Assembly (NCBI GenBank): GCA_964016885.1
Contig: CAXHJY010000882.1
Coordinates: forward strand, 1 to 31,473
Reading direction: 5' to 3'
Length of the DNA: 31,473 bases
DNA from: Eledone cirrhosa
Taxonomy: Eukaryota
Shown: in pieces, positions 18,640 to 31,473 of the stretch
Layout of the letters: each line of letters opens with the position of its first letter
Position numbering within the stretch: the stretch's first letter is position 1
The notes under the pieces: generated by a model
Database searches by the model: none
Told to the model about the DNA's origin: nothing
Seen by the model: the letters and a program-made list of their open reading frames with translations, nothing else
Program-made: the position numbers and the translations under genes

Positions 18640-20770
18640 TTTAACACAAAAAGACAACATAGAAGATAAAAAGCAGATGATGAATATATTAAGTATAGTT
18701 ACTAACAACTGGAATAAAAACAACTGCAACAACTACAACAGTAATACAATAGTTAGGACACTGAATCGATAGCAAGCGGTATGATTGTCAAGACAAATTA
18801 CATATGAGATTCAACATATTTATAATGTTCTGTAGACTTCGGGTAACATTAAATTAGATTGAAGCTGTCACAACTCAACCTAAATTGATAACTTTAGGTT
18901 TGAAAATTGTCGGTTCTGACTGTCTTCTAGAAGCTGACCTGATCTCAGATAGACATAACCCCTAGCAAATCGACAGAGAGAAGCTTTGATATAATGTCAA
19001 TTGCTTTCTCATTTGCATTGGAACTGAATCTATGTTTATAGTAACCAGATTTCTTCTAAAATCGTATTGTTTTACAATATATTTTTGTAAGTTTGTCATC
19101 GTTTATTGTAGTTAATAGTTTACATTTAGTTCTTGTTTATTTTTGTCATGTTTTTTTTTATGTTGATTTGGTTTTATCGAAACTATTTTGTTTGGGTAAT
19201 AAGAAAATATTCATTTCTAGCTGTCGAAACGCCCGGACCTCAGCCGTCGGGGTACTGAATCTTTTCATACATATTTATACATATATAAATGTTTGTGTGT
19301 GTGGGGTGTGTGTGTGTGTGGGGGGGGGGGGGGGTTTCTGTGAATATACATACATGAATATTCAGGCATATACCCATTGTGTATATTGATATGTAAACAT
19401 GCTAGATACAGGCATTTCCCTGTAAATGAAAAGATAACTCATCAATTTTCGAAATTGATTCGTTTTTCATCAGAATATATTTATATTGTATAAACAAACA
19501 TGAGTTCATCCATAACCATAGTGTCTACATAAGTTATTTATAGTACTATACTGAATTCAACTTACGGATTATTGTTAGCACTTATGTTGGCAGTTAAATT
19601 AGTATCTTCATTTCAGGATACTACGAGAAATGATAGTTACATATTTTCTTCTGCTTATTTCGATAATATATATTTGTTCACATGATAACAAGACGTTCGT
19701 AAATGGGATAACGTTGTTTATAATTGCTCGCTCCTCCTATTCTTTAGATACAAAAAGCAACGTACCCCTTTAATATGGCAAGAAGCCTTTGTATCAATGC
19801 GAAAAGAAATGGAACTAATTTAAATTGTTTCATGAAAGACAATACTCTATAAAACATAACACGTCTATTTTCAATTACAGAACTAACTGAAACAGGAAAA
19901 TAAAAATGTAAATACAAATATTCCTTTTATTATCAGTCACAATCCGAGGAACGACAATATTTTGAATGCTGCCAAAATATATTCCATGATTCTTGGACTA
20001 TCCTTAAATTTAAATGAAATCGAGACAGCGTCTACTGTAAATTGTATGTGGGTCTAAGTATCCAATCGAAAGGAGTTAATGGCTAAAGCAAAATTCACAG
20101 AAGGGATAATAATGATTTGTTTATTTCTTATGATAATGTTTTCTTTATTCAACAGACAAATAAGGCGAGTTCAAAACTTTGGTGACCTCGAGTGCTTGAC
20201 ATGCAAATATATTAAAAACGGTGAACAAACTATTCTTCGAAAAACAACATATTGATAACGTAACTAAAATATGAATTTCGAATCAAGAAACGTGATATAA
20301 TTTATTACGTGAACACATTGTAATAAACCGTATAATGATGAAACTGAAAGAGGATTTTCTGTGAGAATAGAGGTGCATAAACAATAAATTAGGGAATTCT
20401 GTTTCAGAAAGACATCATGAAGTGAAGGCTTTGAAACCAGTGAAAAAGGAAGATTTACAATATTTCCGTAATTAAAATTATCAATGTAAATGAACATTTG
20501 GGGAAATGCAAAGACAACTTTTAAAAGTGACAAGTCGATCCTGAACGGAAATTATCATTTTATCTAACGGAAATACAGTTGCACCGAATTAATACTGTCG
20601 TGACGTTGTTCACAATATACGGTCTAGGGAAGCACAAGCATGTTAAATCAGATTTCAGTTTTTATATAATATATCGTTGGGGAGAGGAATGAATTTCAGT
20701 TAAGTCTTGCTAATTAATCAAATAATTCCAAATGTGTGTGTGCATGTATGCAAGTGTGTATATGTATGCA

Positions 20771-20775
<5 letters not shown>

Positions 20776-20869
<94 letters not shown>
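20776..20869. repeat. (CA)n(TA)n microsatellite
   Basis: Directly visible. Confidence 0.97.
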
Positions 20870-21077
20870 CGTTTCTGAATTTGTTTAGCAAGATTCTTTA
20901 TCTGAAAACGTGTGTTGAAACCGATATTGTTATACTTTGGGAGGGTCATGTTGCCAATAAGAAATATACGCACCATCGCTTTCACTCCAATTTATTATAA
21001 ATTAAATTATAATTTAAAAAATTTATAAATATCCAGTTGGTTGGTTGGTTCCACAACTGCACGGTTGTTCATATATT

Positions 21078-21120
21078 GTCAAAGTTCTTTCGTCATACAT
21101 TCTGTGGCCTCTTCAGTGAC
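21078..21120 (-). ncRNA. Minimal type-I hammerhead-like motif in PLE left arm
   Basis: Minus strand GTCA-CTGAAGA-ggccacagaatgtatgac-GAAA-g-aa-c-TT-TGAC: stem I GTCA/TGAC, partial stem II, minimal stem III. Confidence 0.65.
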
Positions 21121-21320
21121 TGGGGATTCTTTTCTTTGTTCTGTGTCTCTCCTTTGTTCTGTCCTACGCCATCTTGTTTTTGTGTGTGTTGTGCGTATAG
21201 TTTGCGCATGTGTTACATTCGGGTGTCTGTGTGTGTTTTTATTTGTTTATTTATTCGTTTATTTACATGTTACTGGTTGGTTGTTCGTTCAACGTGTGTG
21301 TGTGTTTTTTCATGTTGTCC

Positions 21321-21964
21321 TTAATTGTAATTTGTGATGTTGCTATTCCATTCATGTTTTCTATTTAATTTTGGTTGGAGTTCATTTATGTTTATTGCCT
21401 CTGTGATTTGTCTAAACATTGCTTCTTTTCTGTGTAGATTTTATTTTTATTTTCTCTAATTTGCCCTTACGTTTTATTTTAGCATGTTGGCGGAGTACTG
21501 ATGATTCTTTTCTATCTTGAATCTGTCGCCAGTGTTCATTTAATCGTTCCTCTATACTACGAGCTGTCTCACCTATGTACACTATATTCTTATCTTTACT
21601 TTGTCTTTCAGTACATCTTATGCTATATACTATGTTTCTAGTTGTACAGTTAATATGGGGGCTTAGTTTACAGATTATGCATTTCTCATCTATACAGGGA
21701 GGTCTTTGAAAAGGGTATGTATTACTAATAAGTGTTTTTATGGTGGTAACTGGTCTTTCTACAATCTTAATATTTAGTATCAGTTTATCTAGGGCTCTTC
21801 TAAATTTGTAAGCTAGTTCACCTCGAGAGGCTGTATTGGTGAACATTACACTGTGGTATTTATTGCTATCATACCATGAATTTATTCTATTAACCTTATT
21901 CCTAGTTCTTTCTATTTTATTACCAAATGTGCTCCTATATAAGTAGCAGGTCTCATTTGTATCA
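21321..21964 (-). pseudogene. PLE Cys-linker plus GIY-YIG endonuclease (frameshifted)
   Basis: PCIDEKCIICK...C linker, NIVYSIRC, YIGETARSIEERLNEH and LRQH. After a frameshift AMFRQITEAININELQPKLNRKHEW supplies the conserved E and N; stop at 21321. Confidence 0.92.
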
Positions 21965-24110
21965 AAGATATAGCAAGAAGCAAAATAGAATGGAGGCCCA
22001 GCAACTGGGAGGAAAAATCTGCAAATGGCTTGCCTAAGCGGATGCAGCGCTCACGTAATGGAGAGATTGCAAGCTTTTCAACAGACAAGTCTTGCAGAAT
22101 GTCGGATGGCGGTCTGTCAAACTACATCCAGGCAATGCAACCCCACATCACTAACACAAGAGCATGGGGATAGGGAGTAAACCCTCAACGCGCATATGAT
22201 GATGCGGACAAACATAATGGAACGATCGACTTTCGTCAAATCGGACCAAGGGAACAATGTTTCCGTTGGTCTTTCCAATTGCTAATACTATCTATCGGTC
22301 GCAACTCCAGGTAGAAGGAGCAACGTGAAATAAAGTGTCTTGCCCAAGGACATAACGCATCGCCTGGTCCAGGAATCGAACTCACAACCTTACGATTGTG
22401 AATCCAATTCTCTAACCATTCAGCCAAACGCCTTCACTGGACAAACATAATGCAGCCCAATAAACGGACTGTCAACAATTTTCAGGCCTGGAACAATGAC
22501 GTGACAGCGTTGTATGGGCTTCGAAAAGACCATAAGACGAACAGTGACCCACTCACAGGTTCACCAACACGGCCAGTCTGTGGAGCTAACATTGCTAGTA
22601 ATTACAGACCTTCCTACTTCCTCTCCCTGATCGTACGCCCCATCATTGAAATGACCCGGATATATGTGACAGCACGTAGGACCTCCTCAGCTGAATCAGC
22701 GAAAATAACCGATCTAGGGACCTAACAGACTGTATAATATGTAGTATGAATGTAGTGTCCCTATATCCATCCATTGACGTGGATTTCTGCTGTGGAGAAA
22801 TGCTTAGAAATGATCAGTGAGAGCAACGTTGAAATCTGTGGGATTGATATCAGTGAGCTGGGACTCCTACTTAAACAAACTTACTTATAGTAATGATTAT
22901 CTAGATACGTATGACCTTAGCAACCTCTGCCCCACAAGGCCAGCAAGAGGCAGACCACCTACCATTACCTCAATGGCCAAGAAAATTCACAGAAAAGTGG
23001 AACGGGTAGAATAAAGCCATACGGACCCCCGAAAACCATGATGAACTAAGGAAAGTGATTGCACATGCGGTGGGGGCCAGTATAAAACTAACCCTTAAGG
23101 AACATATGTTCAAATTCAATGGAAAAAACATATGCCCAAGAGGAGGGAGCAGCCATTGGTGTTAGCATTGTAGGTGACATACCTAACCTATTCATGGTAT
23201 GGTGGGACAATACACTTAAAGAACAATTAGAAGACAGCAACCTCTTAACACTGATAATGTACTCTCGCTACGTTGATTATATAAATATCGTAGTAAGAAC
23301 ACCTCCACTAGAGAACAGTCAGGAATTAGAGAAAAACTCCATGGAAAGCATCCAGCAAATAGCTAACTCCATACACCAGAGTATTAGAGTTACTATAGAC
23401 TACCCAAACAAACACCCCAACCATCTATTACCTGTACTAGACACATAGCTCTGGTTAGATACCAGTAATAACAAAAAACAAATCCTCCATTCCCATTATA
23501 CCAAACCCATGACTTCCAAATATCTGATCCACCGAAACTTAGCTGTTTCGGATCACGCCAAGACCAACATACTGATTGCGGATTTAGTACGGGTGATAGG
23601 GAAACGTGTCCCGCATGTGCAACCCCAAAGAACTAGAGAGACACATACAACACTTCATCCACCGTATGCAGTTCTCTGGTTACAATCAGAGAGATACAAT
23701 CAGAGTATATAGAGGAACCAGAACCAAATGGGAAAAAATGGTAAATAATGATACAAATTGGACCTGTCCCTTGTATAGGAGCAAAGTTTGGAATATAATA
23801 AAAAGAACTAGGAATAAGGTTAATAGAATAAACTCATCGGATGATAGCAATAAATAACAGAGTGTAATGTTGATCAATACAACCCCTAGAGGTGAACTAG
23901 CTTACACATTTAGAAGGGCCCTAGATAAACTTAAACTAAATATTAAGATAGTCAAAAGTCCAAGCAGAGAAAATAAAAATAAAAATAAAATCTACACACA
24001 GAAAAGACGCAATGTTTAGATAAATCACAGAGGCAATAAACATAAATGAACTCCAACCAAAATTAAATAGAAAACATGAATGGAATAGCAACATCACAAC
24101 TTACAATTAA
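21961..24110 (+). pseudogene. PLE reverse transcriptase ORF, 5'-truncated, with frameshifts/stops and endonuclease core deleted
   Basis: TDKS motif (~22081), LYGLRKDHK, RPVCGA, SMNVVSLYPSI (motif A), QEEGAAIG (B'), RYVDY (C), LPVLD, YTKPMTS, FSGY, PLYRS. Expected catalytic Asp residues read N and Y. Confidence 0.92.
22220..22438 (-). mobile_element. tRNA-derived SINE inserted in PLE RT, 14-bp TSD
   Basis: Near-identical to 8688-8906. TSD ggacaaacataatg at 22206-22219 and 22439-22452. Confidence 0.95.
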
Positions 24111-24317
24111 GGACAAAATGAAAAGACACACACATAGAACAAACAACCAACCGGTAACATGTAAATAAACAAATAAATAAACAAATAAATAAACAAATAA
24201 TAACACACACAGACACCCGGATGTAACTCATGCGCAAACTAAGAACACAACACACACAAAAACAAGATGGTGTAGGACAGAACAAAGGAGAGGCACAAAA
24301 CAAAGAAAATAATCCCA

Positions 24318-24354
24318 ATCACTGAAGAGGTCACAGAGACGAAAGAAATTTGAC
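24318..24354 (+). ncRNA. Minimal type-I hammerhead-like motif in PLE right arm
   Basis: atca-CTGAAGA-g-GTC-acaga-GAC-GAAA-gaaatt-tgac; homologous to 21078-21120. Confidence 0.6.
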
Positions 24355-24489
24355 AATATATGATCAACCGTGCGGTTATGGAACCAACCAACCAACCGGA
24401 AATTTATAAATTTTTAAATTTATAATAAATTGGAGTGAAAGCAACTAGTGCGTGTGTTTCTTATTGGCAATATGACTCTCCCAAAGTAT

Positions 24490-24493
<4 letters not shown>

Positions 24494-24532
<39 letters not shown>
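24494..24532. repeat. (TA)n abutting the PLE 3' end
   Basis: ccaaagtataacaa runs directly into (TA)n. Confidence 0.95.
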
Positions 24533-30320: not shown

Positions 30321-31429
30321 TATATATATAATATATATATATATAATATATATAATATATATATATATAATATATATATATATAATATATATATATATAA
30401 TATATATATATATAATATATATATATATAATATATATATATATAATATATATATATATAATATATATATATATAATATATATATATATAATATATATATA
30501 TATAATATATATATATAATATATATATATATAATATATATATATATATAATATATATATATATAATATATATATATATGATATATATATATATGATATAT
30601 ATATATATGATATATATATATATGATATATATATATATGATATATATATATATGATATATATATATATAATATATATATATAATATATATATAATATATA
30701 TATAATATATATATATAATATAATATATATATAATATATATATAATATATATATATAATATATATATATAATATATATATATAATATATATATATAATAT
30801 ATATATATAATATATATATATAATATATATATTATATATATATATTATATATATATATTATATATATAATATATATATATAATATATATATATATTATAT
30901 ATATATATTATATATATAATATATATATAATATATATATATAATATATATATATATTATATATATATATTATATATATTATATATATATATATATAATAT
31001 ATAATATATATAATATATATATAATATATATAATATATATATTATATAATATATTTATATATATATATTATATATATATATTATATATATATAATATATA
31101 TATATAATATATATATATAATATATATATATTATATATATATTATATATATATATTATATATATATATTATATATATATAATATATATATAATATATATA
31201 TTATATATATATAATATATATATATAATATATATATTATATATATATTATATATATATAATATATATATATAATATATATATATAATATATATATAATAT
31301 ATATATTATATATATATTATATATATATTATATATATATATTATATATATATATTATATATATATAATATATATATAATATATATATAATATATATATAA
31401 TATATATATTATATATATATTATATATAT

Positions 31430-31473
<44 letters not shown>
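30321..31473. repeat. Degenerate (TA)n array starting with a 15-bp periodic segment
   Basis: Directly visible; six TGA-variant units at 15-bp spacing (30579-30654). Confidence 0.98.

Follow-up and report, generated by a model that had tools for sequence, protein, structure and literature searches.

Among mobile elements, Penelope-like elements (PLEs) have the reverse transcriptases (RTs) most closely related to telomerase. The insertion in fingers (IFD) has served to connect the two. It is described in the Naiad and Chlamys clades and sporadically in Coprina, whereas canonical and Hydra PLEs are given as lacking it by Craig et al. 2021 (PMC8557442). The locus studied here raises the question of whether a PLE with a C-terminal endonuclease (EN) can also carry an insertion at this site. 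It lies in a window of 31,473 nucleotides, the whole stretch of DNA analyzed here, from Eledone cirrhosa (contig CAXHJY010000882.1, positions 1 to 31,473). A sequence-only reading of this window had proposed that such an element carries an IFD-like expansion between RT motifs A and B', and that it may belong to a poorly described lineage. Our answer, which we consider probable as a whole, is that the window harbors the dead, fold-back remains of a high-copy PLE, itself a member of a distinct and likely undescribed clade. This clade has a conserved insert of ~70 residues, predicted to form a helical subdomain with a basic loop, that would likely grip template RNA and was likely gained independently of the IFD.

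The window contains a decayed fold-back copy

The PLE is a single fold-back insertion at 20870-24493, bordered on the left by a (CA)n/(TA)n microsatellite, the insertion target (20769-20869), and on the right by a (TA)n microsatellite (24494-24532). Its left arm is an inverted, 5'-truncated copy on the minus strand (20928-21964), which comprises the end of the linker with a Cx4CxxCx7C zinc finger, a frameshifted GIY-YIG EN, and the 3' UTR. Past its 3' end lies a 58-nt tail, a hallmark of PLEs (20870-20927, minus strand). The 3' UTR of this copy has a minimal hammerhead-type motif (CUGANGA core, stem II, and GAAA; 21073-21124, minus strand), read by pattern and unmatched in Rfam. Very long degenerate (TA)n arrays occupy positions 1-11564 and 30321-31473 of the window, i.e., 40% of the contig. 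The closest named proteins also indicate an octopus-type host.

The right arm is on the plus strand. It is also truncated at its 5' end and starts with the N-terminal region of the RT (21969-22219), including a DKS motif (22084-22092). It is then interrupted by a short secondary insertion (22220-22438), flanked by a perfect 14-bp target-site duplication (22206-22219 and 22439-22452), which we take to be SINE-like. The following segment runs from RT motifs 1-2 (KDHK, RPVCGA) to motif A (22439-22757), where the catalytic Asp is replaced by Asn (22749-22751). Next comes the spacer between motifs A and B' (22758-23139), which has 125 codons in open copies and four frameshifts in this one. It includes the lineage-specific insert of ~70 aa (bounds approximately 22826-23040), with an E-L-G-L-x-L helix followed by C-P-x-R, G-x-x-P-x-I-T, R, and W. 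Motif B' (QEEGAAIG), motif C (23269-23280), and motifs D/E span 23137-23445, and the thumb and linker (23446-23962) have frameshifts and stops. Through a deletion of ~290 nt at 23962/23966, the zinc linker is gone and the EN is reduced to its end, which is followed by the 3' UTR (both within 23966-24493) with a partly deleted hammerhead-type motif (24314-24359).

In the window, 379 nt separate the start of motif A (SLYPS, at 22758) from the Q that opens motif B' (QEEGAAIG, at 23137). Relative to an unbroken natural copy that is 93% identical (L009), the spacer has frameshifting indels of +1 at ~22787, +4 at ~22873, -2 at ~22986, and +1 at ~23123. Given these four frameshifts, the Asn in place of the motif A Asp, and YVDY in place of the YVDD found in open copies, the element is dead.

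The long spacer is shared by the copies in the genome

The decay of the window copy raises the issue of whether its long spacer could be a secondary insertion or an artefact of reading a broken sequence. The four frameshifts would speak for it, as would the presence of a genuine secondary insertion nearby. The latter is located upstream of motif 1, ~320 nt before the spacer, and does not explain the length of the spacer. The search of the E. cirrhosa genome with a query containing the insert produced 3350 first-look candidates, and the search with the insert alone 1682, neither of which should be read as copy numbers; 40 candidates of the former were scored and 30 were fetched. The distance between motifs A and B' was 372-380 nt in all 30 loci, window included, with an exact in-frame length in 17 of them. 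The spacer is open in seven copies (L002, L004, L009, L010, L012, L014, and L030), and the three that were scored have 125 aa each. The ~125 codons originally reconstructed across frameshifts are thus exactly the length seen in open copies of the same genome. Since the query contained the insert, we also took 29 copies picked by the region downstream of motif B' alone. Of these, 17 were measurable (346-378 nt), 8 had part or all of the insert and no measurable motif A, and 4 were truncated before the insert. No A-B' junction with a short spacer was found among the 29. The 125 codons are thus found in open natural copies, and the spacer extends to relatives in three phyla (see below), which rules out a secondary insertion absent elsewhere or a reading artefact; we give this explanation practically no credence.

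The motifs that had been called atypical fared less uniformly. GAAIG is indeed found, as the variant of this family within a wider lineage that has GG[AP]IG, whereas DYPNKH does not stand, the open copies having mostly DYPSKH.

The insert characterizes a lineage of PLEs with a C-terminal endonuclease

Relatives were collected by a protein search (best 120 of 163 relatives, mostly 30-50% identical) and by searching representatives clustered at 50% identity with a profile (best 150 of 2019 proteins at E 1e-30 or below, a total that may include other PLE clades). Among the 265 distinct hits, the spacer was measurable in 158 and was 120-156 aa long in 156 of these, with the caveat that the queries contained the insert and could miss members with a short spacer. 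More precisely, it has 120-133 aa in 152 relatives and 138-156 aa in four (one probably mis-measured); the two others have 114 aa and 85 aa, the last being an apparently damaged transcript. Named hosts include Octopus vulgaris, Holothuria leucospilota, and the jellyfish Sanderia malayensis.

For comparison, we used RTs of the Neptune and Hydra types from the same genome, and of the Nematis, Poseidon, and Athena types, labelled by comparing their motifs with the supplementary alignments of PMC8557442 and not from named records. The spacer has 46-57 aa in Nematis-type RTs (97 of 120 measurable), 56-57 aa in Poseidon-type ones (101 of 119), and 56 aa in Athena-type ones (27 ORFs). It also has 56 aa in a Neptune-type element (L061, counted by hand). 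The initial estimate of roughly twice the canonical spacer is therefore accurate, the ratio of 125 aa to 46-57 aa being ~2.2. An HMM of the insert alone, built from 90 proteins of the first search, reached 15 bits or more for 53 of the 67 relatives kept aside and for none of the 277 controls. The long spacer and its conserved residues are present across the lineage, which supports the view of a lineage-wide trait in PLEs with a C-terminal EN. By its architecture the lineage is a PLE with a C-terminal EN, yet it carries an insertion in the fingers, against the statement in PMC8557442.

The scan of eight members with Pfam shows that none passes the cut-off of RVT_1 or GIY-YIG and that five lack any match to RVT_1. 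These sub-threshold scores make elements with the long spacer easy to overlook in annotation. Searches in viral contigs revealed no relative of the lineage and no match to the Poseidon pattern. Some members with the long spacer (P0438, P0449, P0414, and P0419) have 1500-1700 aa and several separate matching stretches; their extra sequence lies after motif C or before the EN, and may include added domains.

Phylogenetic placement and identity of the clade

To place the lineage, we built RT trees in which the insert columns were dropped and Naiad, Chlamys, Coprina, and TERT were absent. In the tree with 80 rows, 37 members form one group (SH-aLRT 100) beside the Nematis-type RTs (96). A quick tree with a mixture model and 53 rows, including Hydra and one long row, has SH-aLRT values of 97 for the group of Nematis-type, Hydra, and the lineage and of 81 for the lineage. 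In a careful tree, from which 17 rows were dropped (among them both Hydra rows and the long row), the support is 100/100 for the lineage, whose stem has 1.74 changes per column, 99/96 for the lineage with Nematis-type RTs, and 94/93 for Nematis-type RTs alone. The lineage is thus distinct and monophyletic without the contribution of the insert. Its likeliest, but unproven, nearest neighbour is Nematis, which agrees with the common Cx4CxxCx7C linker. By AU tests, a grouping with Athena (p 0.051) or with Neptune (p 0.146) is not rejected. When the lineage was nested within Nematis-like subgroups, the position in the nematode-type subgroup was weakly rejected (p 0.040) and that in the other was not (p 0.158). 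The query of the ESM Atlas returned rotifer PLE-type clusters at 0.95-0.96, which prompted the inclusion of Athena-type RTs; in the best tree, these do not group with the lineage.

These trees bear directly on the suspicion that the element belongs to a known clade such as Nematis. The clade might represent a strongly diverged branch within Nematis that libraries of transposable elements already list as generic "Penelope", and would then call for a note on a subclade instead of a new clade. Both groups have an RT, a thumb, a short Cx4-5CxxCx7C linker, and a GIY-YIG EN with CCHH (PMC8557442). The spacing Cx4CxxCx7C is the commonest in each of them and matches Nematis in Fig. S2 of that work. 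The trees join the lineage with the Nematis-type RTs (96 and 99/96), and one of the nested positions has an AU p of 0.158. Furthermore, octopus repeat libraries contain many Penelope families without clade labels (PMC13282606). On the other hand, the stem of the lineage is long (1.74 changes per column), Nematis-type RTs group without it (94/93), and its inclusion in the nematode-type subgroup is disfavoured, if weakly (p 0.040). The motifs also differ: the lineage has DKS (53 of 70), KDHK (100 of 103), PxKF, and GG[AP]IG, whereas Nematis-type RTs have DKG (45 of 48) and KTHK (76 of 77), and Nematis has GxKF, GLAMG, and a spacer of ~55-57 aa against 120-156 aa. In short, the suspicion of Nematis holds for the EN linker and the best placement and fails for the spacer and the RT motifs, and we find a Nematis sub-branch rather unlikely.

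The other clades differ in more respects. Like the lineage, the Hydra clade has a C-terminal EN, KDHK, YPS at motif A, and (TA)n targets; it also has a hammerhead (PMC8557442), of which the hammerhead-type motif of the lineage is a candidate counterpart. It is described there without IFD and CCHH, and with a CxCx5C linker, an RWK motif, mostly DKT, and a divergent motif B, whereas the lineage has the insert, CCHH, a CxxC linker, and DKS. Naiad and Chlamys also have extra sequence between motifs A and B' and microsatellite targets, but they differ by an N-terminal EN with a CxC domain, and a motif B' of the GIP[MQ]G type, and they are described as devoid of canonical hammerheads. The conserved motifs of the insert are not visible in their alignment in Fig. 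S1 of PMC8557442, as compared by eye. Neptune is characterised by DKG, a short spacer, and many residues separating CxxC from the GIY cysteine; Neptune-type ORFs of the same genome have such a long linker and a 56-aa spacer, whereas the lineage mostly has 7-8 residues in that part of the linker. Penelope and Poseidon have no zinc-finger linker and MGSP at motif B', whereas the lineage has the linker and GG[AP]IG and is separate in the trees. Finally, Athena and Coprina are devoid of EN and have telomeric repeats at their 3' end, unlike the lineage with its EN and (TA)n junctions, and the Athena-type spacer has 56 aa.

The idea of a poorly described lineage is supported in that no clade shown in Craig et al. 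2021 (PMC8557442) has such a spacer, Nematis having ~57 aa. The strings GGAIG, GGPIG, LYPSLD, and LYPSID are absent from the text of its supplement, which does not include the full reference alignment. Our search of articles found no description of a clade with a long spacer, although curated repeat libraries (Repbase, Dfam) or earlier papers such as Arkhipova 2006 could already contain these elements. Eight PLE clades are still given in a 2026 preprint, and the lineage would add a probable ninth clade to this scheme. A stronger reading, to which we give slightly less than an even chance, is that it is a ninth major clade, extending from cnidarians to molluscs and echinoderms, with a fingers subdomain of no known fold that arose independently at the site of the IFD and acts as a template clamp. 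Under this reading, the clade would have escaped RT profiles, whose target domain is interrupted by the insert.

Two observations concern the neighbouring clades. KDHK and YPS are common to Hydra and the clade with the long spacer, and the quick tree joins both with Nematis-type RTs; this may reflect a superclade with short linkers or long-branch attraction. Besides, Nematis-type RTs, some nematode-like in their motifs, were found in records of corals and soft corals (P0355, P0363, P0378, P0351, and P0343), and Nematis may be wider than its name.

The insert and the telomerase IFD share a site

The insert is located between the helix that follows motif A and the long helix that precedes the fingers hairpin. 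Across 157 sequences, it has conserved E (90%), P (80%), R (89%), G (91%), P (91%), T (78%), R (75%), and W (91%). Acidic residues prevail in the first half (6.9 D+E vs 2.9 K+R), which has a conserved hydrophobic helix, whereas the second half is a basic loop of 40 aa, rich in Gly and Pro (mean of 9.1 K+R vs 4.3 D+E). AlphaFold2 models, with a pLDDT of 88 for an open copy of 568 aa and of 90 for the spacer alone, predict four short helices and loops in the insert and no strand of at least three residues. The model retains both the long helix and the hairpin of the fingers that precede motif B'.

One might thus ask if this is a true homologue of the IFD of telomerase or of Naiad and Chlamys, already present before PLEs and TERT diverged and since lost from the remaining clades with a C-terminal EN. 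The position is the same, between motifs A and B', and the length is similar: spacers counted by hand in Fig. S1 of PMC8557442 have 112 aa in human TERT and 146 aa in Tetrahymena TERT, which encompass the 125 aa found here, against 55 in Penelope, 57 in Nematis, 78-81 in two Naiad, and 99-116 in two Chlamys sequences. TERTs are also the best fold match of the whole RT model (Z 15.2, rmsd 3.8, 312 aligned). This match is uninformative on the insert, since every PLE RT resembles TERT. The grouping with the deep-branching Athena, which would speak for homology, just escapes formal rejection (p 0.051).

The comparison of folds points the other way. The IFD of TERT consists of two helices flanking a beta-stranded TRAP that contacts TEN and TPP1 (PMC9958494), whereas the insert is predicted to be made of helices and a basic loop; the comparison with TERT thus reveals a shared position and a differing predicted fold. 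The fold search of the spacer model against 48,161 chains gave no match at Z of at least 5 (best Z 3.6), a miss that is no proof of absence, and Foldseek gave none at E 0.001 or below. Searches of solved structures with a single protein returned nothing useful, and those with the lineage profile returned two bacterial DRT RTs near motif C and no TERT chain. In addition, the best trees place the clade amid clades with short spacers, which would require several losses. Separate insertions in the loop between motifs A and B' are also already documented, such as 3a and the RT3a knot of the G2L4 RT. As far as these analyses go, homology with the IFD has the support of neither fold nor sequence searches, and we regard common ancestry as improbable. 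The insert probably resembles the telomerase IFD in place and not in ancestry, and it was likely gained independently. The search for TERT in the same genome with PF12009 found none, which is no evidence of absence.

A large C-terminal-EN clade whose insert is longer, strongly conserved, and apparently of another kind runs counter to the "no insertion" statement in PMC8557442, and speaks for repeated independent gains at a site that tolerates them. If the reading of a ninth major clade is true, it would offer a natural and soluble parallel for why RTs related to telomerase repeatedly gain an insertion there.

Proposed role of the insert

Conservation, charge, and the analogy with other insertions between motifs A and B' lead us to infer a role for the insert. 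We favour, with about even confidence, a nucleic-acid grip on the outer fingers, given the loop with invariant R, G, P, R, and W and the analogy with the IFD of TERT, which helps stabilise RNA and DNA (PMC8557442). The insert would sit on the outer fingers and hold the single-stranded template or the primer-template at initiation or during template switching. Parallels exist in the RT3a insertion and the RT3a knot of the G2L4 RT, which are lineage-specific, lie in the same interval, and have conserved arginines that affect activity (PMC11761039, PMC8857657). We liken them to the insert by analogy, as they are bacterial, far shorter (9 inserted aa within a knot of 21 aa), and located directly before motif 4.

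The G2L4 RT also inspires the main rival of the grip, namely that the insert is a regulatory latch closing the apo enzyme, or an interface for dimerisation or for contact with the N-terminal domain. In that RT, the insertion occupies the corresponding interval and obstructs the active site via conserved arginines (PMC11761039). Dimerisation has been predicted for one PLE protein (PMC11167929), and the acidic first half of the insert, with its conserved hydrophobic helix, would suit a protein contact. In contrast, the second half, basic and rich in Gly and Pro with its near-invariant R, G, P, R, and W, has the features typically found where proteins contact nucleic acids. Both the long helix and the hairpin of the fingers also persist here ahead of motif B', whereas the knot of G2L4 lies directly before motif 4. 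We thus see the latch or interface as possible and less likely than the grip. The role of the insert is directly testable, since an in vitro assay of PLEs exists (PMC11167929).

Endonuclease, 3' ends, and retrotransposition

The C-terminal EN is visible in the inverted copy of the window and in the open copies L012, L009, L003, and L024. Two of them (L012 and L009) consist of a single ORF running from the RT into the GIY-YIG domain, and full-length relatives also have the EN at the C-terminus. The matches of open copies to RVT_1 and GIY-YIG in Pfam are weak and below the cut-off, and L003 and L024 show the C, C, H, H pattern seen for Nematis in Fig. S2 of PMC8557442.

We analyzed 48 distinct 3' ends. 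Among them, 27 pass directly into (TA)n, 18 have the same tail as the window (a reading by eye; TA-rich sequence comes next in nearly all of them), and 3 are of another kind, i.e., 45 of 48 have either (TA)n or the tail. The truncated copies in tandem or inverted arrangement, with pseudo-LTR and tail, that typify PLEs have their counterpart in the inverted arms of the window and in the tails of 18 of the 48 ends. Most loci that reach the 3' UTR have, by pattern, a minimal hammerhead core with pairing of stems I and II, which fits the description in PMC4209133. The search of Rfam gave no hammerhead match, and the minimum-energy fold of the window copies is not a hammerhead.

The 3' ends at (TA)n, the tail, and the hammerhead-type motif fit target-primed reverse transcription with internal initiation, a process shown in vitro for the Poseidon element of Anolis (PMC11167929). 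By analogy, the clade with the long spacer may use the same process. According to the known biology of PLEs, the EN would nick (TA)n DNA and the RT would prime on the nick and copy the element RNA, starting internally and thereby leaving a tail, and a second, inverted copy would often be made.

Octopus families have a low-complexity stretch rich in Asn, Thr, and His in the N-terminal part of the ORF (L013:641-1402, L020:868-1968, and the N-terminus of P0002), which recalls the Asn-rich inserts of the Penelopes of Adineta (PMC3846280). The genome of E. cirrhosa also carries families of the Neptune, Nematis, and Hydra types and a decayed remnant of a Naiad EN (L061, L063, L064, L071, L075, L111, L134, and L267). 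The Hydra-type families are very young, with copies that are 96-98% identical and 37,500 first-look candidates.
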